A DNA stretch of 64,000 nucleotides, from assembly GCA_964446825.1 (NCBI GenBank), contig CAYUQR010000003.1:69971-133970 (forward strand). The letters are read 5' to 3'. Position numbers and translations under genes: made by a program. The notes under the pieces are model-generated. The model was not told where the DNA came from. It saw only the letters and a list, made by a program, of their open reading frames with translations, and ran no database searches. Below, piece after piece: positions 12,579 to 54,574 of the stretch. Numbering within the stretch: position 1 is the first letter of the stretch; every line of letters begins with the position of its first letter. This stretch comes from an uncultured Rikenellaceae bacterium (GTDB taxonomy: Bacteria > Bacteroidota > Bacteroidia > Bacteroidales > VadinHA17).

Positions 12579-13124
12579 TTATTTCTGCATCCTGTCAATA
12601 TGATAATAATGTTCCCCTGTCTCTTCAATGAACAAGATCTTTCCCTTTGCTGTAAACTCTGCATGCGTACCTGTCAGACTATAAATAAGTGAAAATTTTC
12701 CACCCGTCACTTCTTCCCCGGTATTGCCCGGCCTGTAAACTGAACCCTCCCGTTCACAGCTCTTAAGACCACTAAATAATGCATCTTTTAATGTGCTGAA
12801 GGTTTCTATTGTCTTTTCTGGATTATTAAAATTCAGAGGCATTTCACAATGCAGAGTAACCAGTTGACATACCCTGTTCAGCCACATATGAAGTACGGTA
12901 ATGTCGCTGAAACCGGTAAACCATTTGGGATTTTCTTTCAGCGCTGAAAAATCAACCCGGGCAATAATTTTTGAAACGCCATATCCTCCCCTCGAACAGA
13001 TGACGGCCTTAATATCATGGTCATTAACCATCTTCTGGAGATCAGATAGCACGGATTGCAAATCCACGTTATCATGCGGTTCTTCAGTTTCGGGATTACA
13101 CCCCCCTCTGCCGCTGCGCGGCAT
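12579..13124 (-). pseudogene. ldcA: LD-carboxypeptidase (peptidase S66) remnant, truncated at both ends
   Basis: 181 aa core with AVICSRGGYG, nucleophile motif GFSDITVLH and LFIEETGEHYYHIDRM. The ORF stops 41 nt from the ald stop, so the His-bearing C-terminal part is absent. The N-terminal residues MPRSGRGGCNPE are read-through of a GC-rich repeat. Confidence 0.6.
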
Positions 13125-13145
13125 CTCCCCCTAAAGGGTGGAGAG
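13098..13145 (+). repeat. GC-rich two-hairpin element, copy A
   Basis: ACACCCCCCTCTG + hairpin GCCGC-TGC-GCGGC + imperfect hairpin TCTCCCCC..GGGTGGAGA. Confidence 0.8.
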
Positions 13146-13186
13146 AAGACGGTTTCATCTGGTTAAATTTCACTTATTTGCAGCTA

Positions 13187-13231
13187 TTTCTCCCCCTCCC
13201 AGGGGGAGTGCCCGAAGGGCAAGGGGGGTGT
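13187..13231 (-). repeat. GC-rich two-hairpin element, copy B (inverted)
   Basis: CTCCCCCT-CCC-AGGGGGAG and TGCCC-GAA-GGGCA then AGGGGGGTGT. The reverse complement aligns with copies A and C. Confidence 0.8.
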
Positions 13232-13275
13232 ATCGAACAGCAGGGTTTTTCTTTAGCATACTGTTTCGGAGAGGA

Positions 13276-13323
13276 ACACCCCCTCTGTCCCGCAGAGCGG
13301 GACATCTCCCCCGGAGGGGGAGA
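13276..13323 (+). repeat. GC-rich two-hairpin element, copy C
   Basis: ACACCCCCTCTG + GTCCCGC-AGA-GCGGGAC + TCTCCCCC-GGA-GGGGGAGA (perfect 7- and 8-bp stems). Confidence 0.85.
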
Positions 13324-13350
13324 AATCTCTGGAAGTAAGTGAATTTTTCT

Positions 13351-13358
13351 TATCTTTG
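13351..13358 (+). promoter_or_regulatory. -7 box TATCTTTG (metG)
   Basis: 39 nt upstream of ATG 13398. Confidence 0.45.
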
Positions 13359-13397
13359 TTCGGTTTAAAAAATTGCTAACACCTCATTATCAGAATC

Positions 13398-15431
13398 ATG
13401 AAGAATTTCAAAAGATATCTTATAACATCTGCACTTCCTTATGCAAATGGGCCAATCCATATCGGGCACCTGGCAGGAGTTTATGTTCCATCCGATATAT
13501 ATACAAGGTACCTGAGAATGAAAGGTGAAGATGTGATATCAGTTTGCGGATCAGATGAACATGGTGTCCCCATAACTCTGAAAGCCCGTAAAGAAGGTGT
13601 TACTCCTCAGGAAATTGTAAACAGGTATCATGCCATAAATAAAAAAGCTTTTGAAGATTTTGGAATAGCTTTCGATATATATTCACGAACATCCAATAAG
13701 GTACATTATGATACGGCTTCTGAATTTTTCAGGACACTTTATGATAAAGGCAAATTCACTGAAAAATCTTCCGAACAGTATTATGATGAAGAAGCCGGTT
13801 GTTTTCTGGCTGACAGGTATATTACAGGTACATGTCCGCATTGCGGAAACGAGGATGCCTACGGCGACCAGTGCGAAAAGTGCGGAACATCGCTGAGCCC
13901 GAACGAACTCATCAATCCCCATTCGATGGTAAGCGGAAGCAAACCGGTGCTGCGTGAAACATTGCACTGGTACCTTCCTCTCGAAAAATATGAGCCCTGG
14001 CTTAAGGAATGGATCCTTGAAGGCCATAAGGAATGGAAGGCAAATGTTTATGGACAGTGCAAGTCGTGGATAGACCAGGGTCTTCAACCGAGAGCTGTCA
14101 GCCGCGATCTCGACTGGGGTGTTCCTGTGCCGGTTAAAGGAGCAGAAGGAAAGGTACTTTATGTGTGGTTTGATGCCCCTATAGGTTATATTTCAGCCAC
14201 AAAAGAACTTACTCCTGATTGGGAAAAATACTGGAAAGACGTAGAGACAAAGATGATCCATTTCATCGGGAAAGACAATATTGTTTTTCATTGTATAATA
14301 TTCCCTGCAATGCTCAAGGCAGAAGGAAGCTTTATACTTCCGGAAAATGTTCCTGCAAACGAATTCCTCAATCTCGAAAATGACAAGATATCCACCTCAA
14401 GAAACTGGGCGGTATGGCTGCATGAATACCTGGTGGACTTTCCGGGGAAACAGGATGTTCTGAGATATTCCCTTTGTGCCAGTGCTCCTGAAACGAAAGA
14501 TAATGATTTCACATGGAAGGATTTCCAGGCCAGGAACAACAATGAACTGGTTGCTATTCTGGGGAACTTCATTAACAGAGCCCTTGTACTAACAAATAAT
14601 TATTACAACGGGAAGGTGCCTGAAAGAGGAATAACCGATGAAAATGACGACAGTGTTCTGGCTGAAATAAAACGCATAAGAGAAAATGTTGAGACCAGTC
14701 TTGAGGCATTCAGGTTCAGAGAGGCCCTCAAAGAAGCAATGAACCTGGCCAGACTTGGCAATAAATATCTTGCCGATGCTGAGCCTTGGAAAGTTATTAA
14801 AACCGATCCGGAAAGGGTAAAGACAATAATGAACATCGCCTTACAGATAACCGCCAACCTTACAATCATCTGTGAACCTTTCCTTCCTTTTTCCATGGAA
14901 AAACTTGGCAGCATGATCAATTTCCGCGAGATGAACTGGAACAACGCCGGCAGAACTGATCTTCTGCCTTCCGGCCATATTATCAATAAACCGGAGTTGT
15001 TGTTTGAAAAGATTGAAGATAAAGAGATCGCGCGACAGATAAATAAGCTTCTTGCCACGAAAAAAGCCAATGAATCGACTAATACACAATCTGTCCCAGG
15101 TAAAGAAATGATAACCTTTGATGATTTCAGTAAAATCGATATCAGAACCGCCACTATCCTTGAAGCTGAAAAAGTCCCAAAAACAACTAAACTTCTTAAG
15201 CTCACCATTGATACGGGTCTCGATATACGCACCATAGTTTCCGGCATTGCCGAATACTATGAGCCGGAGACTATCATTGGCAGACAGATATCCATTGTGG
15301 CCAACCTTGAGCCCCGCAAGATAAAAGGCATAGAGTCAAAAGGGATGATACTGATGGCTGAGGATAAAGACGGGAAACTGGTTATGGTAATCCCTGCTGA
15401 TAAAGTCAGTAACGGCAGTATGATAAAGTAA
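13398..15431 (+). CDS. metG: methionine--tRNA ligase
   Basis: 677 aa. PIHIGHLAG, zinc knuckles CPHCG/CEKCG, KISTS, C-terminal tRNA-binding domain. Confidence 0.95.
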
Positions 15432-15432
15432 T

Positions 15433-16416
15433 TTATTGTTTCCTGGAGATCCAGGCGCCGGGGAATTTTTTTGCGATGCTGTCTTTTTTTGAAAGAGCAG
15501 CATTCATATTATTACATCCCATGGCACATACCCTGTAAAATCCATTAGGAGCAGGCATTACTTCAGGATCGAAGCCTTCTTCCTTTAATATCTTCACCTG
15601 GGAGAGTGCGTTTTCTTCCGATTTGAAGCTTCCGGTTATAATAAAAAAATAATTAATCTCAGAAGGAGTTTCCGTTATAGCAGGCGCCGTTTCAGTTACT
15701 ATTACCGCCGGTACTTCAGCAACAGGTTTACTATTCTCTTCAGCTACTGCCGATGCATTCTTAACACTCTCATCAATAGCCTTTTTATTATGTTCGAATT
15801 CAGCTGAAACGAGCGGATTCATTGTTGTTGTCTCCACCTTCGCCTTAAAGAGGTCCGTTGTAAGAGGTACGGCCAAAACAACAGCGAGGAGAGGAATAAA
15901 AATTGCTGCCCTCCACAATATCTTTCTCCTGAAAGCCTGTTTCACAGGATCCTTGTCGATATGCCTTGTAATTCTCTTTCTTACATCATACCCTTCGAGC
16001 GGCATGCACTGAAAAGACTCAAGTCCGTATGAATCGAGGTGATAATTAACGTTCCTGTCTGGCTCAAACTGGATATTTCCTTCATGGTTATTAACAAAGC
16101 TTCCGATCTTATCGAAGGTTACCTTCTCCCCTTTCTCAAGCTTTTTCTTTATGCCTGAAACGAACTCATCAACCAGCGTCCTGGCATCGCCATAATTAAT
16201 TCCTGCTGTACCCGAGATTCTTCCTAATAAAAGGCCGTCATTATGATTCAGGTTCCTGTTGAACGATATCTGCTTGACAGGCGGGTAAAAAGTCCCCGTA
16301 CTCTTGTCAATCTGTGCCGGTGTATAGTTTCCAATGAAACCGCCAAAACCCGGAACAATAACACAGTCGTGCCCGAACAATAATTCCCGTATGAAAGCAG
16401 TAATATCCAATTTCAA
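15433..16416 (-). CDS. HU-CCDC81-like N-terminal domain / SPOR C-terminal domain protein
   Basis: 327 aa, TTG start. N-terminus FIRELLFGHDCVIVPGFGGFIGNY, one TM segment, C-terminal SPOR-like FFIITGSFKSEENA...GFYRV. Confidence 0.7.
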   Translation of the reverse strand: MKLDITAFIRELLFGHDCVIVPGFGGFIGNYTPAQIDKSTGTFYPPVKQISFNRNLNHNDGLLLGRISGTAGINYGDARTLVDEFVSGIKKKLEKGEKVTFDKIGSFVNNHEGNIQFEPDRNVNYHLDSYGLESFQCMPLEGYDVRKRITRHIDKDPVKQAFRRKILWRAAIFIPLLAVVLAVPLTTDLFKAKVETTTMNPLVSAEFEHNKKAIDESVKNASAVAEENSKPVAEVPAVIVTETAPAITETPSEINYFFIITGSFKSEENALSQVKILKEEGFDPEVMPAPNGFYRVCAMGCNNMNAALSKKDSIAKKFPGAWISRKQ

Positions 16417-41223: not shown

Positions 41224-42189
41224 ATGAGCCTAGCAGAATTAGTACAAAGCAGCGGGTGGAAAAATTTCATCGCTAAACTTTACGGTTTAGGTGCTTCAGT
41301 AGTTATCGTTGGCGCCTTGTTTAAAATACAGCACTGGCCACTGGCAGGAACCATGCTTACTATTGGCCTTCTTACCGAATCAGTAATCTTCTTCTTTTCA
41401 GCTTTTGAACCATTACACGAGGAGGTTGACTGGTCGCTGGTATATCCTGAACTTGCAGGAATACCTGAAGATGAAACACCCGAGCTTGCTGCACAGGGAG
41501 GAGGATATTCCGGTGGTGTCGCCGGCGGCGGCGGCGGTGGCGGCTATGGCGGTACAGGCATTGGCGGTACAGGCACCGGCTCCGGACATGGCGGCGGTGG
41601 TTATGGCGGCGGAGGATTTGGCGGCGGCGCCGGTTCTGCTGCCCTGGCAAAATTTGATGAAATGCTTGAAAAAGCAGAGATCACTCCCGAACTGTTCCAG
41701 AAACTGGGTGTAGGCATGAAAAAGCTCGGCGAGTCAACTGCTAACATGAATACCATGGGTGATATTTCTGCTGCTTCCTCAAGGTATATGAATACTGTCA
41801 ACAATGCAACAGATTCGCTCGGCCAGTTATCTGAATCTTATCAGTCTACTGCCAAGCTGATCAATGAGACCAGTTCCACGTATCGTAACATGGCTGATTC
41901 TTTTTCAATTATTGAGGTAGGAGGGAAATCCTATCAGCAACAGCTTGAAGTGCTTAATAAAAACCTGTCCGCTCTGAATGCAGTTTATGAACTTCAGAGA
42001 AAAGGAGCAGATGACCATATAAAAGAATCTGAGAATCTCTATAAAGGTATTCAGGGTATTATAAAAGATCTTGCATCATCAGCTGATGATACTCAGAAAT
42101 ATCGCGAACAGATAACTAAACTCAACGATAATCTGTCAGCATTAAATAATGTTTATGGAAATATGCTTGCTACAATGAATGTTAAATAA
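41224..42189 (+). CDS. gldL: T9SS motor protein GldL/PorL
   Basis: 321 aa. Two TM helices, KLYGLGASVVIVGALFKIQHW and GTMLTIGLLTESVIFFFSAFEP, with an intramembrane Glu. Coiled C-terminal part. Gly-rich insert at residues 91-138. Confidence 0.85.
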   Translation: MSLAELVQSSGWKNFIAKLYGLGASVVIVGALFKIQHWPLAGTMLTIGLLTESVIFFFSAFEPLHEEVDWSLVYPELAGIPEDETPELAAQGGGYSGGVAGGGGGGGYGGTGIGGTGTGSGHGGGGYGGGGFGGGAGSAALAKFDEMLEKAEITPELFQKLGVGMKKLGESTANMNTMGDISAASSRYMNTVNNATDSLGQLSESYQSTAKLINETSSTYRNMADSFSIIEVGGKSYQQQLEVLNKNLSALNAVYELQRKGADDHIKESENLYKGIQGIIKDLASSADDTQKYREQITKLNDNLSALNNVYGNMLATMNVK

Positions 42190-43852: not shown

Positions 43853-44677
43853 ATGAATAAGAAAATTCTTTTTGGCATTATCGCTCTTACTTTTGCAGGG
43901 ATGGCCAGTGGTCAGACAATTGGCGATATTTACCGGAAATCGATTCCGGATGCAAAGAAGATCGATTATCCGTATCTCAGGGAAGCAGATGTTATATGGT
44001 CCAAGAGATATTATCGTTTGATCGACCTGCGAGAGAAGATGAACCAGCCGTTGTATTATCCAACGGTTCCGACACTGGATGGAAGAGAGAGTTTCATCAA
44101 TATAGTTCTTGATGAGATCAAGGCCGGGCATCTGAATGCCTACGACCCCAATAATATTAATGTTAGTACCACCTATTCTGATATTGAGGTAAAAATGGGG
44201 GCCGTCACCAAACTTGTCCAGGTACAGATAAATGCCTCAGGAGCCATGAGAGAAGATTCTGTTAAACAGGATGCAAAGCCTGAAGAGGTCAAAGAACTTA
44301 TGCTGTATGAAGAGTGGTATTTCGACAAAAAACTTTCGAAACTTGACGTGAGAATAATAGCCATCGAGCCTATCTATATGGGGTTTGATGAACAGATTGG
44401 AAGAGCGAAAAAAATAGGATTGTTCTGGGTCAAATTTGACGAACTAAGGGATGCCCTTGCAAAGAAGGAAGTTTTCATGAGTAATAACGATGCCCAGAGA
44501 CTTTCATATGACGACCTGTTCATGCAGAGAAGATTCGAGAGTGTTATTGTCGGAGAATCCAACGTATATAACGACAGGAAGGTCAGTGAATATGAGCTTG
44601 GGAAATCTGCTATTTTTGAGGCCGACCGCATTAAAACCGAGCTTTTCAACTTTGAACACGACCTCTGGGAATATTAA
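43853..44677 (+). CDS. gldN: T9SS ring protein GldN/PorN
   Basis: 274 aa with signal peptide. Position after gldM, and motifs [24 protein letters not shown] typical of GldN. Confidence 0.8.
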
Positions 44678-46298: not shown

Positions 46299-47042
46299 AT
46301 GTTTAAGTTCCTGACTCAATTGGGAAGTTACTTCCTCCTGCTTAAGAAGGTCTTTTCAAAACCTGAGAAGCCATCTCTGTATTACAAGCAAACTATGCGC
46401 GAATTTGTATCTCTGGGGCTGAACTCAATAGGAATTATTGCCATTATATCTTTTTTCATGGGCGCAGTTATTACTCTGCAAACGGCGTATAATACCGAAA
46501 ACCCCATATACCCTAAATATCTTATAGGGCTTGGATGCCGCGATTCCATGATACTGGAATTTTCATCTACCGTTGCTGCACTTATTCTGGCTGGTAAAGT
46601 CGGATCCAGTATTGCTTCAGAAATAGGGACAATGAGGGTTACCGAACAAATTGACGCACTCGAGATAATGGGCGTCAATTCTGCTTCATACCTTATTCTT
46701 CCAAAAATAATTGCAACAGTTATTTTTAATCCTTTCCTAACCCTGCTCGCTATTATCATTGGGATATTCGGGGGTTGGATAGCAGGCACTCTTTCGGGTG
46801 TTATTACCTCAGAGAATTTTATTTATGGCATTCAATATGCCTTTATCCCTTATTATATTACCTATTCATTAATTAAAACCCTGTTTTTTGCATTTATAAT
46901 ATCGAGTGTGTCAGCATTCCAGGGATATTATGTTGATGGAGGATCGCTTGAAGTTGGCCGGGCCAGCACGAAAGCTGTTGTATACAGCAGCGTGCTGATT
47001 TTGATGTTCAACGTTATACTCACTCAACTTCTTCTGTCATGA
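46299..47042 (+). CDS. mlaE: MlaE-family ABC transporter permease
   Basis: 247 aa multi-TM protein. EIGTMRVTEQIDALEIMGVN motif. Confidence 0.85.
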   Translation: MFKFLTQLGSYFLLLKKVFSKPEKPSLYYKQTMREFVSLGLNSIGIIAIISFFMGAVITLQTAYNTENPIYPKYLIGLGCRDSMILEFSSTVAALILAGKVGSSIASEIGTMRVTEQIDALEIMGVNSASYLILPKIIATVIFNPFLTLLAIIIGIFGGWIAGTLSGVITSENFIYGIQYAFIPYYITYSLIKTLFFAFIISSVSAFQGYYVDGGSLEVGRASTKAVVYSSVLILMFNVILTQLLLS

Positions 47043-47794
47043 TAAATGTTAAAAACCTTAATAAATCATTTAACGGGAAGAAGGTCCTGACTGATATCTC
47101 GGTGACCTTCGACAGCGGTATAACCAACCTCATAATCGGGAAAAGCGGATCAGGGAAAACCGTTCTCCTGAAATCCATTGTGGGCCTGCATGAAATAGAC
47201 AGCGGAGAAATATGGTTCGAAAACACACTTTTTAATAAGCTCGCCTTTAAAGACAGAAAAGAGATACGCAGCGAGATGGGAATGCTTTTTCAGGGCAGTG
47301 CTCTTTTCGATTCTCTTACTGTTGAACAGAATGTCCGTTTCCCTCTTGATATGTTTACTGACAAAAGCAATGAGGAAAAAGACGACAGGGTAAATTTTTG
47401 TCTTAACAGGGTTAATATACTGAATGCTAACAAGCTTTTCCCGGCAGAATTATCGGGAGGAATGAAAAAAAGGGTGGCCATAGCCAGGGCTATTGCCTTA
47501 AATCCAAAATACCTTTTCTGTGATGAACCGAATTCGGGTCTTGATCCCATCACCGCAATACTGATTGATGCACTTATCAAAGAGCTGACTGAAGAGTATA
47601 AAATGACAACGATAGTGAATACTCACGACATGAATTCAGTTATGGAAATCGGAGAGAAGATCGTATTTATCAGCGATGGTGAAAAATGCTGGGAAGGGAA
47701 TAAAAATGAAATACTCAATTCAGATTGTGAAATACTGAATCATTTTGTATTTGCAAATTCCCTGGCTAAGCAATTGAAGTCAACAAAAAAATAA
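47039..47794 (+). CDS. mlaF: MlaF-like ABC transporter ATP-binding protein
   Basis: 251 aa. GKSGSGKT Walker A, LSGGMKKR signature, FCDEP Walker B. 4-nt overlap with mlaE. Confidence 0.85.
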   Translation: MINVKNLNKSFNGKKVLTDISVTFDSGITNLIIGKSGSGKTVLLKSIVGLHEIDSGEIWFENTLFNKLAFKDRKEIRSEMGMLFQGSALFDSLTVEQNVRFPLDMFTDKSNEEKDDRVNFCLNRVNILNANKLFPAELSGGMKKRVAIARAIALNPKYLFCDEPNSGLDPITAILIDALIKELTEEYKMTTIVNTHDMNSVMEIGEKIVFISDGEKCWEGNKNEILNSDCEILNHFVFANSLAKQLKSTKK

Positions 47795-47806
47795 TATCCC
47801 CTGACC

Positions 47807-47989
47807 CTATTTGTCAACTTCTTCGTAATCGACATACTCTCCTATCTCTTTAGAGACCTTCTTATTTCTTTTTGTCTGATTACCCGGGTCATGTCTCACT
47901 GGCTGATTATCTTCCGCAGCGTATCTTATAAATGACCTTATTATAAGATAAATTATCAGACCTATTAATAAATAACGAATTAAAAGCAT
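47807..47989 (-). CDS. small membrane protein (DUF4834-like as recalled): one TM helix plus acidic tail
   Basis: 60 aa, LLIRYLLIGLIIYLIIRSFIRY then GEYVDYEEVDK. Lies 14 nt downstream of the preceding gene, as last gene of the operon. Confidence 0.6.
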   Translation of the reverse strand: MLLIRYLLIGLIIYLIIRSFIRYAAEDNQPVRHDPGNQTKRNKKVSKEIGEYVDYEEVDK

Positions 47990-48003
47990 AAAGCATTAAA
48001 TAA

Positions 48004-49470
48004 TTATTGAACCGATATCATCGGTGTATCGTTTTTTGCCCTGGTATGGTTCCCAAATACAAGGTTCATACCTAATCTGAAATTCAATGTATTCCAGTTT
48101 GCAGGAAGGACAATATTATTATTATCCGATACTATTTTATTCCAGTATACCGGAATCCTGTCGGTCATGATGTAAAACTGCCAAAATCCCCCCCTGACAG
48201 CCAGTCCGGCACCAAAGTTGTCATAACGGTGGTTGGTCATCGTATAACTTAAGCTTGCTGACAATACATTGCTCAGATTAGCATTCCCTGACACAGTTAC
48301 TGCTTCCCGTATTTGTTTTCCTATAAACCTGGTATATGATAACAGACCAACCGATAATTTTGAGTTGATAAGATAACTGCCACCTACGGACACACCAAAT
48401 GGAAGAAAAGTGGTGAAGGATTTATTGGTGTTAGAAATATTCACGGAGTTCTTTAATGAATCACCCATCTCCGAAGCAAGTTCGTCAAATGTCTTCGTGC
48501 CATTAATAACGTCGAGCAAATCAAAACCGCTGAAATCAAACTGGCTGTTTAAAGCTAAATTGGTAACATCTCTCTTCCATCTTATATAGCCAAGGTCAGT
48601 TATTGCAGCCGACAGTACTATATTGTCAGTAAGATCGTAAGTAGCGCCAATATCTATGCCAAGGCCAATATTCTTAGATCCGGTAAAAAACTTTGCATTT
48701 ATCCTCTTATCATCAAAAACGACACTGTCGATAATATTTTCATTACTTGTGTAAAAATCAGCAGGAGCACTTGCATTGAAAGTCATATCAGCATTAAGTG
48801 TATGAGAATAATCGTCGTTAACAGTTATTCCCATCGATTTGTTACTCAATGAAGCAGATGCAATGCCAAACAGCAATTTCCCCTTTACTCCAATCCTTAA
48901 TCTGTTAGTGAAGTTCCTTGAAAAGCCCAGTCCAATTTCGTGATAATACATCATACTTGCCCTTAACGACGACATGTCGATGGTTTTTCCGACAAATCCT
49001 TCATTCCCGTTCAGGGCAAGCTTGAAGAAATCGCCAGGAATCACAATATTTCCTTCAATGCGTTCATTGATATCAAGAAAAACATAAGTATTGTTCCCGA
49101 CAGATAGTCCGAAACCCAGGAGTTGTGTCATAACTTCAGGCTCAAAAGAGTTAAGGTCCTTTATCTTCGAAAGAAACTTATCGATAGAGGCATTATTATT
49201 GTCTTTATGAAGAAATGTAAATATCGAATCCGATGACTGGTTTTTAAGAAAGACATCCGAGAAATTAACGAAGTTGTTATTTACGTTCAGATTAATACCT
49301 GACAAAACCGGCAATCCTATATATAAAGAATTGGAGGGCCTTAACGCAGGATTTAGAAGATGATTCTGCGGCAGGTTCATGAAGTACATTACCTGGCTGT
49401 TCTGTGAAGATGCATCAGCAAATATCATCGCCAATATCAGAATCAGAAAATATTTTGTTTTCCCGCTCAT
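48004..49470 (-). CDS. secreted beta-barrel-like outer-membrane protein of unknown function
   Basis: 488 aa with signal peptide ...IFADASSQ. N-terminal SQVMYFMNLPQNHLLNPA resembles the PorP/SprF signature. Alternating-hydrophobic strands and Gly/Asn-rich turns. Confidence 0.7.
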   Translation of the reverse strand: MSGKTKYFLILILAMIFADASSQNSQVMYFMNLPQNHLLNPALRPSNSLYIGLPVLSGINLNVNNNFVNFSDVFLKNQSSDSIFTFLHKDNNNASIDKFLSKIKDLNSFEPEVMTQLLGFGLSVGNNTYVFLDINERIEGNIVIPGDFFKLALNGNEGFVGKTIDMSSLRASMMYYHEIGLGFSRNFTNRLRIGVKGKLLFGIASASLSNKSMGITVNDDYSHTLNADMTFNASAPADFYTSNENIIDSVVFDDKRINAKFFTGSKNIGLGIDIGATYDLTDNIVLSAAITDLGYIRWKRDVTNLALNSQFDFSGFDLLDVINGTKTFDELASEMGDSLKNSVNISNTNKSFTTFLPFGVSVGGSYLINSKLSVGLLSYTRFIGKQIREAVTVSGNANLSNVLSASLSYTMTNHRYDNFGAGLAVRGGFWQFYIMTDRIPVYWNKIVSDNNNIVLPANWNTLNFRLGMNLVFGNHTRAKNDTPMISVQ

Positions 49471-49489
49471 ATTAATTTCTTTAAAATAT

Positions 49490-50638
49490 TCAATTCAGTT
49501 CTATACTAGGTTTCACTACAAGGGAAGCTTTAAAATCAATCCTGTAGTCGGAATATATTTTAACATCTTTTGTACCGCCGTCAGTTGTATTGACACTAAA
49601 AATGAAAATTATCCTGTCAGCTTTGTCAATTGAACTGAAAAACTCCTGTGTGAATTCAATTTGAGTTGTCGTATTGGTAACCCCTGTAGCTTTTTCATTT
49701 CCATCAACCGGCGCGGGTTGAAGAAGGTCTGTGGCACTCACTGTTTTTAATATTGTATTTGATTGAGAATCATAAAGACTCATACTAAGAGAAACTCCCA
49801 GGGGGAACCCGTTATCGGCATTGATGTCGATTCTTAGCAATTCAAAATTTTCAGGTTTGACAGCATCATTATTATCGTTATCATTTTTCAGAAAATTATC
49901 TGTAGTATCGGCAAACTGCAGGTTGCTCATTCTTAATTCCATTGGCACACTCAGCTCAAATGAACCTTCAAGCTGATCGATCCCCAGGTCTTTTGCAGCT
50001 ATTTCTCCTTTTTTCCCAGGAGGATTCAGAGTAGCTAATCCTGAATAATGTATCATTTCAGGAGGCAGCGATATAAGCTCAGGCAGTGAGGAGTTGGTCT
50101 TATCGATGATATAAGAAGCTGAAACAACCTGGCCCGGGGTATCAGGACCGGTCAGCACAAAGGGTGTGGCTCCAAGATCGACAGATTCATTTTTTCTTAC
50201 TCCGGTCACATCCAGACTTATTTCCAGTGGCGCTGAAAATGAGTTCAAATAATTAAATTTTAATGTCGGACTTGAAATCAGGAAATCTCCCGAAATATGA
50301 TTTAAAACTTTGTCAATACCGAGATCAAAAGTGCCTGGTTCAATAGTTGCAGTCATCTCATCAAGAGGTCCCTTTGTAGAAAAGTCATCCATTGTCAGAG
50401 TGACAACAGTGTCTTTTTTGAAAACCAGTATCATTAGTTTATCCTGATCATAAACAACAGTATCAGTCGGTTTAAGCATATCGAGAAGAGAAACATCACC
50501 TTTTACGGCTGAAACAGCCCAGGTAGGTGACAATCTGTTGTTTTTGTCAAGCCTGTTCATGTCGTACTTTTCCTTTATGCAACTGCTGACCAGGAGAGCT
50601 GTGACAATAAGAATTAACAGTAATGGTCTACTTTTCAT
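49490..50638 (-). CDS. lipoprotein of unknown function
   Basis: 382 aa with lipobox LLVSSC. No family recognised by eye. Confidence 0.7.
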   Translation of the reverse strand: MKSRPLLLILIVTALLVSSCIKEKYDMNRLDKNNRLSPTWAVSAVKGDVSLLDMLKPTDTVVYDQDKLMILVFKKDTVVTLTMDDFSTKGPLDEMTATIEPGTFDLGIDKVLNHISGDFLISSPTLKFNYLNSFSAPLEISLDVTGVRKNESVDLGATPFVLTGPDTPGQVVSASYIIDKTNSSLPELISLPPEMIHYSGLATLNPPGKKGEIAAKDLGIDQLEGSFELSVPMELRMSNLQFADTTDNFLKNDNDNNDAVKPENFELLRIDINADNGFPLGVSLSMSLYDSQSNTILKTVSATDLLQPAPVDGNEKATGVTNTTTQIEFTQEFFSSIDKADRIIFIFSVNTTDGGTKDVKIYSDYRIDFKASLVVKPSIELN

Positions 50639-50646
50639 ATCCTTCC

Positions 50647-53328
50647 TTATTTAACATCTGTTTCTATTTTATAATTATACAGGAACCTGTCTGTGCCTCC
50701 GACGATCAGATGCCAGCCGCTTCTGTCTGATAGTTTCCCTATTGAGAACATCGATGCTCCTTTAAGCGGAAATCCTTTCATTGTCTCACCTTTTTTCCCA
50801 ATAAGATATATCAGGTTCCTTGCTGTGTCAAAAACTCCGATTTTCCTGTCAGAACCGGAAAAGATGAAATTGATCGGTCCCCCCAGATCATCGGATTCAA
50901 AATCTCTTTTAAATATCTCAGCCCTGTTATGGTTATAAAGATACAATATACCTTTATCAATAAAAATATATTCACCAAAACCATCGCCATCTATGTCAAA
51001 AATATCGAATGAATGGTCAGCAGAAAACTTTTTCATGCTGAATTTCTTAACTGTTCCGTCGAAATAGATGTACTGAACCGTGCCATCGGGAGATGAACAT
51101 ATTACTGCCTGTTCCGAACCGGGTGTCAGCCTCATGGCCGATCCTTTTGCCCGCGTAACAGGTTCCTTAAGGTTAACCCTTTTGTTGCCTCTTCTGTCGA
51201 GAAAATATATTGATGTTTCATCAGCCGCTACAATATAATCTTTCCCTGATACTCTGAAATAATTTATTTCTGAATTAACAACACCTGCTGTCCTGAATAT
51301 ATTCCATCCCTTAACAACATTCCCTGTTTTATCATAAGAATAGATCTTTTTGTCTTCTCCGGCAATAAAAAGCCTGTAATTCAGGTTATTATCATAGTCA
51401 AAGAGAGCCAGGGAGTTTGTTGCAGGCGATCTTAATTTAACCGGGTATCTTTCTACATAATTGCCATTCCTGTCGAGTATATGCAGATAGTTATGTCCGG
51501 AAAATAGTAACTGATATTTCCCGTTCCGGTAATAATCAATCATATAAATGAAACCTTTAATTCTTTCGTTAAGCGGTACTTTCCACAATACACGTCCGGC
51601 TGCATTAATCAGGTAAACATTGTTTCTCAGGTCCTGAATGAATATTTCCTTTGCGCCCGTAATATGATTTGTGAAAAAGAAAGGTTTTATGCACGCAGTA
51701 GTATCCAGCAGAGTTTCCCATTCAGTATTGGATTCTTCCCTGGCCACCTCTTTATACCTGACTGACAGGCTGTTATACATCATCCCGTTACTTGAGGCTA
51801 TCTGGTATCCGATTGCCTGAATTTTGCCCAGAGTTTTTTTATTTTCATTAAGTGATTTGATCAGGTTTTCATTTAAGAAGCCGGCAAGGTAGTTTATAAT
51901 ACGCGACGGGACACAGAAGAAGAAATAGCCTGCACGGCTTGGAAGAGTACTTTCAAAATCGCGATATACAAGATCATTTGACAGTGTCTTGCTTAAAATA
52001 TTGTCGTACAACAGCCGCGATATTGTAGTAAATGAATTTCCTGAAATCAAATAATTATCATAAAAAGCAAAAAAGGTATCGTTGAAGCGGGGAACAAAAC
52101 CCGGAAGAATTATTCCTGACAGTCCGCTAAAAGATGTCTTATAAACGGGAATCTTTGTCTGGTCGTCGGGCTGAAAATATAAAACCTGCTTTCCGGGACC
52201 GATATTTTCAAGGAAAATTCTTTCAGCCTCAACACGGTTGTTCAATTCATATATAACCAGTGTATTATCAGCCACAGGATTGTCTTTTATATCAATATAT
52301 GCCCTGGTGATCTCCCCGTCTGTAAATGCCCTGAGCTTGTATGCGAGATCAGCGGCATTTTGCGAAGATGCATCCTTTTCCGACACTTTGAGATCATTAT
52401 TTTCGGGAAGCAGAAGTGTTTCAAAAAGCACGGTTGAAGAAGGAAGTATTTTATAAGTATGAAACTCTTTCGGCTGAACATTTTTATACCTGTAAAGCAA
52501 ATCAAGAGAATCTTTAGTTTCGGTATAACCGCTGAGTGCCAGGCCATCTTCATTTATATAGATATCTCCGCTCGCTGTTTCTGCCAGCTTTGAAATCTTT
52601 GGGATCAGTTTCTTCCCTTCTCCTGCCATAATATTGCTAAATAAGGGAGCGAGGTTTTTAAAAACCACAAATATTTTGTCCTCGTTTTTCCCTGAAGCAA
52701 TCAATACCCTGGAAAAACCCGGGAGGTTCTTTATATCATTCTGCTGACCTAACTGGTCAACAGCTTCGGTTAAAAGATCTTCGGCATTGCCGCAAAGCAT
52801 TAAACCTGAAATAAGCGATAAATAGACTGTGTCTTTTAACGAATTGATGGTGTAAGGGATCTTAAAAACAGGATAGTCGTTCAATTTAGCATCAATTATC
52901 TCCCTTACACCCGAGTTCCTCAGCATTTCTTTAATATGCCTGCTTCTGAGCTCTCCCGTTACAGCCATAGAAAGAAGGAGGCCGGATTTACCTTTCGATT
53001 CGGGAAAAAAGGAAATGATTGCGGGGCCATCTGTTTTTAACCTGCTAAAGGCTGACTTATTAAGCTGATCGGCAATAAATTTTAGTTTCTGATTAAATCC
53101 GTCAAACTCTTTAATTGCAGCGACTTCACCAAATAATCCTTTTCCTGTTGCCAGAGAATTTATAAAGCTCTGAAGATCTACTGTTTCAATAATTATGGCA
53201 GCTTTGGGGCTGATTGCTTTATAAGGATCGGTAAATAAGGTCTTTCTACCCATCTGTAAGAAATAGACCATAATTGCAAGGCCCGCAACCAGTGCAATAA
53301 TCAGAAATATTGTTAATTTTTTCCCCAC
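50647..53328 (-). CDS. N-terminally membrane-anchored protein with C-terminal beta-propeller-like repeats, unknown function
   Basis: 893 aa, GTG start, TM LTIFLIIALVAGLAIMVYFL. The C-terminal roughly 370 aa hold at least 7 blades of type xxIYxxDxxGNxxxGxP (NVYLINAAGRVLWKVP, LHILDRNGNYVERYP, IYSYDKTGNVVKGW, IYLIGKKGETMKGFP) and an FG-GAP-like DIDGDGFGEYIF. Confidence 0.7.
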   Translation of the reverse strand: MGKKLTIFLIIALVAGLAIMVYFLQMGRKTLFTDPYKAISPKAAIIIETVDLQSFINSLATGKGLFGEVAAIKEFDGFNQKLKFIADQLNKSAFSRLKTDGPAIISFFPESKGKSGLLLSMAVTGELRSRHIKEMLRNSGVREIIDAKLNDYPVFKIPYTINSLKDTVYLSLISGLMLCGNAEDLLTEAVDQLGQQNDIKNLPGFSRVLIASGKNEDKIFVVFKNLAPLFSNIMAGEGKKLIPKISKLAETASGDIYINEDGLALSGYTETKDSLDLLYRYKNVQPKEFHTYKILPSSTVLFETLLLPENNDLKVSEKDASSQNAADLAYKLRAFTDGEITRAYIDIKDNPVADNTLVIYELNNRVEAERIFLENIGPGKQVLYFQPDDQTKIPVYKTSFSGLSGIILPGFVPRFNDTFFAFYDNYLISGNSFTTISRLLYDNILSKTLSNDLVYRDFESTLPSRAGYFFFCVPSRIINYLAGFLNENLIKSLNENKKTLGKIQAIGYQIASSNGMMYNSLSVRYKEVAREESNTEWETLLDTTACIKPFFFTNHITGAKEIFIQDLRNNVYLINAAGRVLWKVPLNERIKGFIYMIDYYRNGKYQLLFSGHNYLHILDRNGNYVERYPVKLRSPATNSLALFDYDNNLNYRLFIAGEDKKIYSYDKTGNVVKGWNIFRTAGVVNSEINYFRVSGKDYIVAADETSIYFLDRRGNKRVNLKEPVTRAKGSAMRLTPGSEQAVICSSPDGTVQYIYFDGTVKKFSMKKFSADHSFDIFDIDGDGFGEYIFIDKGILYLYNHNRAEIFKRDFESDDLGGPINFIFSGSDRKIGVFDTARNLIYLIGKKGETMKGFPLKGASMFSIGKLSDRSGWHLIVGGTDRFLYNYKIETDVK

Positions 53329-53351: not shown

Positions 53352-53359
53352 CAAAAGTA
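53352..53359 (-). promoter_or_regulatory. -7 box TACTTTTG (unknown four-gene envelope operon)
   Basis: CAAAAGTA on the plus strand, 23 nt upstream of GTG 53328. Confidence 0.45.
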
Positions 53360-53488: not shown

Positions 53489-53560
53489 TTACACAGGCAA
53501 TCTTAAATATATCCCTGAAGAATCAGGGCAGCCAGGTCAAAAACCTGGCTTTTATTTTTT
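53489..53560 (+). ncRNA. candidate small RNA (orphan plus-strand transcript between two minus-strand genes)
   Basis: Bounded by the sigma-54-like site and the plus-oriented intrinsic terminator. Contains hairpin CCCTGA-AGAA-TCAGGG (53513-53528). Confidence 0.2.
53530..53560 (+). terminator. intrinsic terminator oriented for the plus strand
   Basis: AGCCAGGT-CAAAA-ACCTGGCT followed by TTTATTTTTT. On the minus strand the T-run precedes the stem, so it reads as a canonical terminator only on the plus strand. Confidence 0.6.
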
Positions 53561-53561
53561 A

Positions 53562-54551
53562 CTAAAATGGCCTGTACCCTATTATCTCTCTCACGTCCCG
53601 TACGGTTTTGGAAGCGCTTGCCCTTGCTTTTTCAGCGCCTTCGGAAACAACTTTGGAAAGATATTTATTGTCGGCGAGAATATCATTGATCCTGATCCTG
53701 ATTGGTTCCGTGAACTTAATAATATCTTCTGCAAGCTGTTTTTTCATGTCACCGTATCGTATTTCACACGATGCAAATTTGTCTTTGAAATATTTAACAG
53801 TATCAGGTTCGGAAACGACTTTCATTATTGTAAAAAGGTTCTTCACAGGCTCTGAGGGTTCCTGACCTAAGGTGGTCGGACCTGTATCAGTTACTGCTCT
53901 CATGACCTTTTTCCTTATCACCTGGGGTGTATCAGCCAGGAAAATACCATTCCCTTCACTTTTACCCATTTTTCCGGTGCCATCCAGTCCGGGAATTTTA
54001 ACAAGTCGTTTTCCAAAGTTATATGCGTCGGGTTCCGGGAAATAGTTTACTTCATACATCATGTTAAACCGTCGTGCAAATCTCCTGGTCATTTCGAGAT
54101 GTTGTTCCTGGTCCTTTCCCACAGGTACCTTATTTGCCCTGTGAATTATAATGTCAGCAGCCATAAGCACCGGATAAGTCAACAGCCCGGCATTAATATT
54201 ATCAGGCTGTTTCCTGATTTTCTCCTTAAAAGAGGCGGTTCTCTCGAGTTCACCCACATAAGCATTCATATTCAGTAGAAGGTATAACTCCGACACTTCC
54301 GGAACATCACTCTGGATAAACACCGTGGCTATTTCCGGATCTATACCGCATGCGAGGTATTCAGCCAGTACCTGCCTGATATTAACATGAAGATCTTTGG
54401 ATTTAGGATGAGTTGTAAGTGCGTGATAATCTGCTATAAAAAAATAGCAATTATTTTCGGTCTGCATTTTCAGAAAATTCTTTATTGCCCCGAAATAATT
54501 TCCCAGGTGCAGGTTTCCTGTTGATCTGATGCCGCTCACAACTGTGTCCAT
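53562..54551 (-). CDS. trpS: tryptophan--tRNA ligase
   Basis: ORF to 54563 (TTG). ATG 54551 (MDTVVSGIRSTGNLHLGNYFG) preferred. KMGKS motif. Confidence 0.95.
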   Translation of the reverse strand: MDTVVSGIRSTGNLHLGNYFGAIKNFLKMQTENNCYFFIADYHALTTHPKSKDLHVNIRQVLAEYLACGIDPEIATVFIQSDVPEVSELYLLLNMNAYVGELERTASFKEKIRKQPDNINAGLLTYPVLMAADIIIHRANKVPVGKDQEQHLEMTRRFARRFNMMYEVNYFPEPDAYNFGKRLVKIPGLDGTGKMGKSEGNGIFLADTPQVIRKKVMRAVTDTGPTTLGQEPSEPVKNLFTIMKVVSEPDTVKYFKDKFASCEIRYGDMKKQLAEDIIKFTEPIRIRINDILADNKYLSKVVSEGAEKARASASKTVRDVREIIGYRPF

Positions 54552-54574
54552 CGTGTTATTCAATTAAAATTCAA

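Follow-up and report, generated by a model that had tools for sequence, protein, structure and literature searches.

What function is served by four adjacent genes lying 3.1 kb from gldN in a Rikenellaceae genome? The window, i.e. the whole stretch of 64,000 nucleotides that was analysed, carries them as a minus-strand cluster encoding proteins of 893, 382, 488 and 60 residues, called here g1, g2, g3 and g4. [quoted passage not shown] We tentatively favour an envelope-bridging or outer-membrane-stabilising module of the class Bacteroidia, which would not be a core part of the T9SS.

Organization of the gene cluster

The four open reading frames were confirmed on the minus strand, to which all coordinates of the cluster refer, together with the gaps of 8, 19 and 14 nt that separate them: g1 (50647-53328), g2 (49490-50638), g3 (48004-49470) and g4 (47807-47989). 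All the sequence features quoted earlier for the four proteins and for the N-terminus of PorP were also found. Dozens of genomes carry homologues of all four with their order unchanged, which shows that these are real genes.

A Bacteroidetes-type -7 promoter box, TACTTTTG, was located by inspection of the sequence and by a pattern scan at 53352-53359, 24 nt upstream of the g1 start codon. Across the whole window the TAnnTTTG pattern is not enriched (63 occurrences found, 61 expected), and a second minus-strand match lies inside g1 (50997-51004), so that the box announced as single is present but only approximately single. Among relatives, such a box lies 15-60 nt from the g1 start in 53 of 79 cases (30-38 nt in the rows inspected), and this retained position supports a real promoter. 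Upstream of it, a hairpin and T-run following trpS (53530-53550) probably form the trpS terminator, which likely sets the cluster apart from the upstream gene. The four genes are, as proposed, very likely co-transcribed.

On the other side of the cluster, the distance of 3.1 kb between g4 and the end of gldN (position 44677) was verified. Three differently oriented genes, manC, mlaE and mlaF, occupy it; only 12 nt lie between the end of mlaF and g4, and mlaEF is convergent with the cluster.

The four proteins and their families

No functional literature was found for g1, g2, g3 or g4. Searches returned no papers on DUF3352 or DUF4834 and passing mentions only of DUF5723, and comparison of the single proteins with the PDB gave no sequence relatives; the genes are thus uncharacterised, as had been stated. 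The novelty did not extend to the protein families, as three of the four proteins fall in catalogued DUF families: g3 is a full-length DUF5723 protein, g1 belongs to a DUF3352-containing family and g4 is a short DUF4834 member, while g2 remotely resembles DUF4621. These four families are catalogued without an assigned function. The co-occurrence of the cluster genes, the DUF3352-propeller fusion and the adjoining DUF5723-OmpA fusions were absent from the papers retrieved by DUF name.

The g1 reading frame has a GTG start, and at E < 1e-30 its family counts 1683 representatives, each standing for a cluster at 50% identity. The sequence contains one N-terminal transmembrane helix at about residues 5-25 (53254-53316), flanked by KK and GRK, and the first structure model placed a helix at residues 2-29. 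The N-terminus would accordingly be cytoplasmic and the remainder periplasmic, making g1 a putative inner-membrane-anchored periplasmic protein. Residues 31-530 (51739-53238) form a DUF3352-type domain, assigned from PF11832 matches in homologues and from an AlphaFold model (pLDDT 82.9, pTM 0.77). PF11832 was matched in 25 of 43 diverse g1 homologues (best E 8e-20) and is also the precomputed annotation of relatives at 54-63% identity. The domain consists of alpha/beta modules with local Mog1/PsbP/DcrB-like similarity. Foldseek against the PDB gave no match at E <= 1e-3, only weak local ones of about 110 residues to DcrB, EagT6, BT_1490, PA94 and PsbP (E 0.04-0.1, TM 0.24-0.38).

From about residue 535 to 893 (50650-51726), weak Pfam propeller/FG-GAP matches and the strand pattern of the model point to a C-terminal beta-propeller of roughly 8 blades, which includes a DxDGDG loop, the repeated blade motif and DIDGDGFGEYIF. 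This is the most conserved part of g1, with 19 of the 20 invariant columns of a 43-sequence alignment falling in it. Foldseek returned generic propellers for it, with BamB ranked below designed propellers and WD40 proteins of eukaryotes, and PQQ_2/BamB Pfam matches were obtained for 3 of the 43 homologues. The full-length g1 model was poor (pLDDT 60).

The g3 product is an outer-membrane beta-barrel protein with a signal peptide and the mature end SQNSQVMYFMNLPQNHLLNPA; it matches PF18990 over its full length (E 3.9e-96, 323 bits). A Pfam scan found no OmpA domain in it. Fourteen g1-adjacent g3 genes, however, exceed 700 residues, 13 of them in a clade of metagenome-assembled genomes (MAGs) labelled Flavobacteriales. 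All eight long genes that were scanned encode DUF5723-OmpA fusions, seven with TSP_3 repeats, and the fused genes often begin 4-55 nt after g1. The resemblance of g3 to PorP/SprF proposed earlier holds for a short N-terminal motif, defined post hoc, that g3 and PorP have in common and that no other open reading frame of the window contains. Homology is not supported: the PorP_SprF Pfam family gave no match at E <= 0.1, hhalign probability was just 2.7-12%, and BLASTP gave E = 0.23.

The lipoprotein g2, with its lipobox LLVSSC, is the fastest-evolving member of the cluster and a short form of a family that elsewhere spans 380-720 residues; the lipobox Cys20 is invariant in 34 homologues. It had no match in Pfam, NCBIfam or a single-sequence PDB search, and its family profile matched PDB entry 4H3W, a DUF4621 protein (E 3e-4, hhalign probability 49%), which suggests a remote resemblance. 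Finally, g4 is a protein with a single transmembrane segment and a PF16118 (DUF4834) match below cutoff (22.4 bits against 27.8); with longer orthologues the score rises to 46.9 and 38.7 bits. The C-terminal GEYVDYEE motif, part of the tail GEYVDYEEVDK in the window, is kept in 19 orthologues.

Conservation of the cluster

Co-occurrence was counted in 180 evaluable loci related to the g1 locus of the window, which are phylogenetically related, so the adjacency counts are not independent evidence. As g1 was the search query, it is present by construction in all 229 non-redundant related loci. Directly downstream of it, g3 adjoins g1 in 130 of the 180 loci (72%). Adjacent g2 was found in 100, never without g3, and g4 lies near g1 in 83. 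These counts define g1 and g3 as the conserved core, to which g2 is added as a facultative companion of g3.

The g1-g3 adjacency is seen in relatives with identities between 99% and about 25%, among them MAGs labelled Bacteroidales and Flavobacteriales as well as cultured Marinifilum and Ancylomarina. Furthermore, the g1-g2-g3 block outlasts the loss of the surrounding synteny, as in locus L052 and in 17 loci with g2 and g3 and without gld genes (e.g. L089-L102), and intergenic gaps are tiny in distant clades too.

Relationship to the type IX secretion system

The location of the cluster raises the possibility that g1, with g2, g3 and g4, is an accessory module serving the PorP-GldKLMN core, for instance by providing the secretion/gliding apparatus with a scaffold in the periplasm or outer membrane, or with an anchoring station. 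When the presence of gld genes was scored within the fetched locus around g1, they were found in 85 of the 180 loci and were absent from 95. Near relatives account for most of the positive cases (69/78, made up of 50/58 and 19/20 in the two clades nearest the window). At greater distance the association is mostly lost while g1 and g3 persist, gld genes being absent from 54 of 70 distant loci (present in 16) and from all 32 loci of the Flavobacteriales-labelled clade. In favour of the link, g1 stands beside the T9SS core in three different layouts, and in L097 and L240 it is directly upstream of, and co-directional with, porP-gldKLMN. Each alternative layout could however be derived from that of the window by one local inversion, which would keep the proximity automatically. 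In addition, genes for a methyltransferase and an FtsX-type permease, along with trpS, belong to the same conserved block, an argument for general synteny, and with manC, mlaE and mlaF in between, the cluster is not co-transcribed with gld.

The N-terminal motif common to g3 and PorP speaks for an accessory role, and the lack of detectable homology between them against it. Also in its favour, a published vesicle-protein table lists a Porphyromonas gingivalis DUF5723 paralogue right next to a T9SS cargo protein, with consecutive UniProt accessions, and the two genes are presumably adjacent in the genome. Against it, DUF5723 also occurs in Brachyspira, a spirochaete, and spirochaetes are not known to possess a T9SS. 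Altogether, the claimed T9SS link is weak: its one basis is a neighbourhood shared with trpS, mlaEF and manC, and confined to the closer relatives of the window. We therefore regard an accessory T9SS function as unlikely.

In the known T9SS protein PorE (PG1058), too, a propeller is joined to an OmpA_C domain, which counts in favour of an accessory role; with PorP, PorE forms a Bacteroidota envelope assembly of propeller, OmpA-type domain and barrel, the same three elements as in the clade with OmpA-fused g3. In the cluster, however, it is a DUF3352 protein anchored in the inner membrane that bears the propeller, and any OmpA domain belongs to the barrel; the NCBIfam PorE model matched neither g1 nor the g3 of the window. 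PorE is proposed to be a compact outer-membrane-to-peptidoglycan tether (PMC12204202; PMC12773672).

Other interpretations of the cluster

A role in outer-membrane biogenesis or in lipid/lipoprotein trafficking appears quite improbable. Here g1 would be an inner-membrane-anchored chaperone or adaptor, with a BamB-like propeller and DcrB/PsbP-like modules, that hands substrates to g2-g3 or regulates them, possibly with MlaEF. DcrB has been linked to the maturation of lipoproteins, and EagT6 chaperones hydrophobic segments; both are among the best local matches of the N-terminal domain, which are weak and short. BamB, an eight-bladed periplasmic propeller working with an outer-membrane barrel, is among the propeller matches, below the designed and WD40 propellers. 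It differs in being a small outer-membrane lipoprotein, whereas g1 is inner-membrane-anchored and has a 500-residue extra domain, and the cluster contains no BamA-type POTRA barrel. A lipoprotein and barrel pair beside an inner-membrane-anchored periplasmic protein also recalls LptC/LptDE, in which such a pair is served by such a protein; yet no sequence similarity to Bam, Lpt, Lol, Tam or Mla periplasmic components was seen. The mlaFE genes lie beside the cluster in most near relatives, and they are convergent with it, not co-transcribed, and missing near g1 in most distant loci.

We likewise give little credence to the view that g1, the g2-g3 pair and g4 are functionally independent envelope genes sharing a transcript in some lineages, because g3 adjoins g1 across wide divergence, even after synteny loss, with tiny gaps in the window and in distant clades, and because at such distances Bacteroidia otherwise retain little of their gene order. 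The observations behind this view do show that the four genes do not form an obligate unit, since g1 may stand by itself, be joined by just g4 or just g3, or have the full set beside it. In 35 of the 180 loci g1 has no adjacent partner at all, g4 alone accompanies g1 in 15, and g2, g3 and g4 come and go even among close relatives. In L184-L187, from Vicingaceae/Flavobacteriales-labelled MAGs, g2-g3 lie 5-6 kb off on the opposite strand. The loosely associated g4 sometimes adjoins trpS instead (L096, L102). From the 50 loci without adjacent g3 and the 35 without any partner, g1 may work alone or with partners encoded elsewhere.

A putative envelope-bridging module

In the bridging reading that we tentatively prefer, g1 would be the core. 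Its single helix would sit in the inner membrane, the roughly 500-residue DUF3352-type domain and the roughly 8-bladed propeller would reach into the periplasm, and the propeller would dock onto an outer-membrane partner, the g3 barrel, usually with the lipoprotein g2. Together, g1 and g3, with or without g2, would build a physical bridge or scaffold between both membranes, and g4, a frequent yet dispensable neighbour, may associate with the g1 anchor in the inner membrane. The trans-envelope parts list drawn up earlier (inner-membrane anchor with periplasmic domains, lipoprotein, outer-membrane barrel) would fit such an arrangement. The suggested outer-membrane tethering gains from one large clade in which the orthologous barrel carries a periplasmic, peptidoglycan-binding OmpA-type domain; such fusions point to envelope architecture rather than to substrate secretion. 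The tethering reading does not gain from the g3 of the window itself.

Bridging is thus favoured by the operon-like packing, the kept -7 box, the g1-g3 adjacency, the absence of g2 wherever g3 is missing, the OmpA fusions, the invariant propeller residues, the combination of anchor and periplasmic domains, and the survey cited below, which expects more outer-membrane-stabilising systems in Bacteroidetes. Against it count the unfused g3 of the window, the 50 loci without adjacent g3, the poor full-length g1 model and an N-terminal domain without a significant structural relative.

Tol-Pal offers a comparison, as it likewise has an inner-membrane-anchored arm, TolB combines an N-terminal alpha/beta domain with a C-terminal propeller, and Pal is an OmpA-type, peptidoglycan-binding outer-membrane partner. 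TolB is however six-bladed and soluble, whereas g1, with about eight blades, carries a transmembrane anchor of its own, and the outer-membrane partner here is a barrel instead of a lipoprotein. No TolQR/ExbBD motor genes adjoin the cluster, and TolB/Pal families were not among the family matches for g1-g4. A survey found no tol-pal loci in Bacteroidetes, leaving that function open there, and further outer-membrane-stabilising systems are expected in the group (PMC12204202). The role of the g1-g3 module would lie in envelope architecture: it may keep both membranes and the cell wall in register with one another, or stabilise the outer membrane.

Organization of the cluster and its surroundings

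The four open reading frames of the preliminary description were all recovered on the minus strand: g1 (50647-53328; 893 aa, GTG start), encoding a TM-anchored propeller protein; g2 (49490-50638; 382 aa), a lipoprotein; g3 (48004-49470; 488 aa), an outer-membrane barrel protein; and g4 (47807-47989; 60 aa), a small single-TM protein. Consecutive genes are separated by 8, 19 and 14 nt, and the sequence motifs that had been quoted for their products were all found.

Upstream of g1 lies trpS (53562-54563, minus strand), followed by a hairpin with a T-run at 53530-53550. A Bacteroidetes-type -7 promoter box (TAnnTTTG), TACTTTTG, is located at 53352-53359, 24 nt before the g1 start. TAnnTTTG is not enriched over the whole window (63 matches for 61 expected). 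Of 79 relatives, 53 have a box 15-60 nt from the g1 start, at a distance of 30-38 nt in those rows that were inspected; this position-conserved box, a phylogenetic footprint, supports a real promoter. It had been presented as single; the box upstream of g1 is indeed there, but a second minus-strand match occurs within g1 itself (50997-51004).

On the downstream side of the cluster, mlaF is encoded on the opposite strand and ends 12 nt short of g4, and beyond it come mlaE, manC, gldN-M-L-K and porP. No mlaD (MCE) gene follows mlaE and mlaF (46299-47794), the next gene being the convergent g4; mlaFE accompany the cluster in most near relatives. The gldL homologue (41224-42189) encodes 321 aa, of which the GldL_N model matches the first ~80 residues only, and its long C-terminal part gave no family match. 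In many relatives, a TonB-dependent receptor of ~800 aa is encoded between trpS and g1 on the opposite strand (L011 5420-7831, L081 5431-7881, L071 5433-7847, L132 177-2675 and others; L-numbers designate g1-bearing loci from related genomes); in the distant set, this receptor makes up a cluster of 22 loci. No such receptor is present in the window, where the trpS-g1 spacing is only 233 nt.

Assignment of the four products to protein families

With Pfam, only weak propeller matches were obtained for the window g1, and PF11832 (DUF3352) was not matched at E ≤ 0.1. PF11832 was found in 25 of 43 diverse full-length g1 homologues (best E 8e-20), relatives at 54-63% identity carry it as a precomputed annotation, and several homologues are named 'DUF3352 domain-containing protein' at NCBI. 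Transitive homology through these proteins would place the window g1 in DUF3352. At E < 1e-30, the g1 family numbers 1683 representatives (50%-identity clusters), which are typically full length at 890-940 aa. Look-ups of its clusters returned the labels 'hypothetical' or 'DUF3352 domain-containing protein' only, and a third homologue search, with a diverse g1 profile, largely recovered the close relatives already known and added no named protein.

Single-sequence searches of g1, g2 and g3 against the PDB returned nothing useful, and the g1 profile matched designed propellers only. The full-length g1 model was poor (pLDDT 60), with a strand pattern that suggests about eight blades, and Foldseek related it to generic propellers only, BamB being one of many; functional inference from these matches was therefore dropped. 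Residues 31-530 were modelled well (pLDDT 82.9, pTM 0.77) and had no PDB match at E ≤ 1e-3 with Foldseek. Local matches of ~110 residues to Mog1/PsbP-like proteins (DcrB, EagT6, BT_1490, PA94, PsbP) give a weak hint that the modelled N-domain may be built from alpha/beta modules of this type. In the alignment of 43 g1 sequences, 19 of the 20 invariant columns fall within the propeller, which marks out the propeller as the probable functional end of the protein.

For g2, neither Pfam, NCBIfam nor single-sequence PDB searches gave a match, forms of ~700 aa included, and Pfam was equally negative over 34 members of the family. The profile built from 34 sequences matched PDB 4H3W, a DUF4621 (PF15414) protein, at E 3e-4 (hhalign probability 49%, E 1.7e-4). 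The lipobox Cys is invariant and is followed by K, then D/E, which matches only partially the published lipoprotein export signal of K-(D/E)2 type, so that g2 is at most a candidate for surface exposure. The family falls into length classes of ~380, 530 and 700 aa, which differ by a middle region gained or lost (compare 49490-50638 in the window with L004 10684-12798 and L066 6097-7668). Of the four proteins g2 evolves fastest, with 76% identity where g1 has 86%, and 53% where g1 has 68%.

The g3 product is a full-length DUF5723 protein (PF18990; E 3.9e-96, 323.4 bits for a cutoff of 26.8, model positions 1-376 of 376), and its profile matched nothing in the PDB even at E ≤ 10. The preliminary description had heard in its N-terminus an echo of PorP/SprF. 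Four homology tests of this kinship were negative: PF11751 (PorP_SprF) had no match in g3 at E ≤ 0.1, while the window's own PorP matches it at E 2e-66; two hhalign runs of g3 profiles against PorP gave 12% and 2.7%; and BLASTP aligned the two proteins at E 0.23, outside their N-termini. What survives of the echo is a short N-terminal motif. Among the 70 ORFs of at least 100 aa in the window, the loose pattern Q..Y.M..NP[AG] occurs directly behind the signal peptide in PorP and g3 only, and it takes in residues conserved within DUF5723. As the pattern was drawn up after viewing both sequences, it offers a lead, not an argument for kinship.

The window g4 scored 22.4 bits against DUF4834 (PF16118), below the cutoff of 27.8 and over its C-terminal part only. 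Longer syntenic orthologues scored above it (46.9 and 38.7 bits), and the window protein has in common with its orthologues the TM helix and a C-terminal GEYVDYEE motif.

Conservation of the cluster in related genomes

Contigs representing one genome per species were scanned three times with increasingly distant g1 relatives as seeds. The 243 loci obtained were reduced to 229 non-redundant ones, of which 180 were evaluable, with 4.5 kb or more of sequence beyond g1 on its downstream side. To locate g2, g3 and g4, HMMs were derived iteratively from the proteins of the window. In 130 of the 180 loci g3 comes directly after g1; g2 stands between the two in 100, and never without g3. A g4 gene was nearby in 83. 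Only g1 and g4 were present in 15 loci, and 35 had none of g2, g3 and g4.

The g1-g2-g3 block was kept where the wider synteny is lost, as in the complete chromosome of L052 and in 17 loci with g2 and g3 and no gld genes (e.g. L089-L102). The full set is carried by cultured Marinifilum and Ancylomarina; g1 was alone in the fetched locus of Sunxiuqinia and Mangrovibacterium isolates and of a Saccharicrinis MAG. The cluster is real and widespread. The taxon labels of many MAG records look unreliable ('uncultured Rikenellaceae', 'Bacteroides sp.', 'Chitinophaga pinensis', 'Chlorobiota'; a 'Bacteroides sp.' record, for instance, has gldNM beside g1), and clades are therefore described by sequence identity.

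In L184-L187 (MAGs labelled Vicingaceae or Flavobacteriales), the g2-g3 pair is displaced yet still near g1: it lies 5-6 kb upstream on the opposite strand in L184-L186, and only its g2 falls within the fetched stretch of L187. In L061, two tandem DUF5723 genes (12748-14241 and 14543-16060) follow g1-g2 with g4 between them, a sign that the barrel gene was duplicated locally. In 10 distant loci, a gene for a FadL/TodX-family outer-membrane protein follows g3 closely and in the same orientation (L101, 15184-16902, 572 aa, Pfam Toluene_X at E 1e-12, and nine others). The additional conserved neighbours of the distant loci (TonB-dependent receptor, UDG, Na/Pi transporter, the FadL-like protein and sulfur-metabolism genes) offered no hint of function.

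In the clade of MAGs labelled Flavobacteriales, Vicingaceae, Crocinitomicaceae or Cryomorphaceae, a gene of ~820-950 aa often begins 4-55 nt after g1. Fourteen such long g3 genes adjacent to g1 were found, 13 of them in this clade, and all eight that were scanned encode DUF5723-OmpA fusions, seven with TSP_3 repeats. According to Pfam, the window g3 has no OmpA domain.

Relationship with the gldKLMN genes

An association of the cluster with the T9SS had been proposed from its proximity to gldKLMN. Co-location with gld genes, scored within 20-kb loci as a proxy for genome-wide T9SS co-occurrence, was observed in 85 of the 180 loci and was strongly clade-dependent. Where g1 is at least 50% identical to that of the window, gld genes were present in 50 of 58 loci, and at 34-50% identity in 19 of 20; the figure drops to 16 of 70 in more distant Bacteroidales-type loci and to 0 of 32 in the Flavobacteriales-labelled clade. 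As the conserved block also includes trpS, a methyltransferase, an FtsX-type permease, mlaEF and manC, this pattern reads as a regional synteny signal.

Two alternative layouts occur, with porP-gldKLMN upstream of g1 (L138, L231, L241) or g1 directly upstream of porP-gldKLMN (L097, L240). In the latter two loci (L097 7620-14023, L240 9016-20796), g1 precedes the co-directional porP-gldKLMN by ~300 nt, and g2, g3 and g4 are missing. Starting from the window arrangement, one local inversion suffices to produce either layout, so that selection for proximity is not demonstrated, and these layouts were set aside as evidence of it. No relevant literature was found for a role of g1-g4 in CTD-cargo secretion or gliding. 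The proximity looks like lineage-specific synteny rather than evidence of membership, and an accessory role in the T9SS seems unlikely.

Comparison with known envelope systems and interpretation

A TolB-Pal-like tether was considered in its strict definition. TolB has a six-bladed propeller, whereas g1 shows about eight blades in a low-confidence model. The families matched by g1-g4 include neither TolB nor Pal, and no ExbB/TolQ-type genes of a TolQRA motor were found among the cluster neighbours. The OmpA-type partner of TolB-Pal has no counterpart domain in the window g3, although one clade's g3 orthologues possess it. Because of the blade count, the absence of motor genes and the lack of OmpA in the window g3, this strict identification was abandoned. 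BamB, an outer-membrane lipoprotein, consists of an eight-bladed PQQ-like propeller alone, whereas g1 has a TM anchor, no lipobox and an extra 500-aa domain; as the fold similarity is also generic, g1 was not equated with BamB.

Our preferred reading, to which we would give somewhat less than an even chance, is that the cluster is an envelope module stabilising the outer membrane or the envelope architecture; its topology, the contact between g1 and g3 and its function are our inferences. The constant part would be the DUF3352-propeller protein g1, presumably anchored in the inner membrane, and its usual partner, and putative contact, the DUF5723 barrel g3. The lipoprotein g2 would be an optional member dependent on the barrel, and the small DUF4834 membrane protein g4 a loose associate. 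In one clade, the OmpA fusions would tie the barrel to peptidoglycan, and they suggest a role in the architecture of the envelope or in stabilising the outer membrane. The stabilising module also fits a published survey which found no tol-pal loci in Bacteroidetes, proposed PorE as one outer-membrane tether and expected further stabilising systems (PMC12204202).

A more specific proposal, which we consider doubtful, is that g1-g3 with g2 and g4 form a hitherto unrecognised trans-envelope system of Bacteroidia replacing the missing Tol-Pal. An inner-membrane-anchored arm, made of the alpha/beta domain and the propeller, would engage the outer-membrane barrel, itself fused in some lineages to a peptidoglycan-binding OmpA domain, and would hold the outer membrane stable or in position. 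The system might, in some Bacteroidales, have become coupled spatially or functionally to the neighbouring PorP-GldKLMN secretion/gliding core.

A role of the cluster in biogenesis or trafficking appears improbable, and equally so a functional independence of its genes.

As to novelty, the protein families are already catalogued DUFs. Searches by DUF name found no papers on DUF3352 or DUF4834, an unrelated plant-gene paper as the only match for DUF4621, and for DUF5723 only two mentions in passing, one of a vesicle protein from P. gingivalis and one of a barrel modelled with 16 strands in Brachyspira. The conserved g1-g3 pairing, the combination of DUF3352 with a propeller, the reliance of g2 on g3 and the OmpA-fused barrels beside g1 are absent from the papers retrieved.

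Four anonymous ORFs have thus become a defined and widely conserved pair, a DUF3352-propeller protein and a sometimes OmpA-fused DUF5723 barrel, with optional partners. Three DUF families gain a joint hypothesis that is testable, with Marinifilum and Ancylomarina as cultured carriers. The module bears on the question of how the outer membrane of Bacteroidota is attached to the cell wall and the inner membrane and, if it is truly a tether, it would fall among the trans-envelope connectors.
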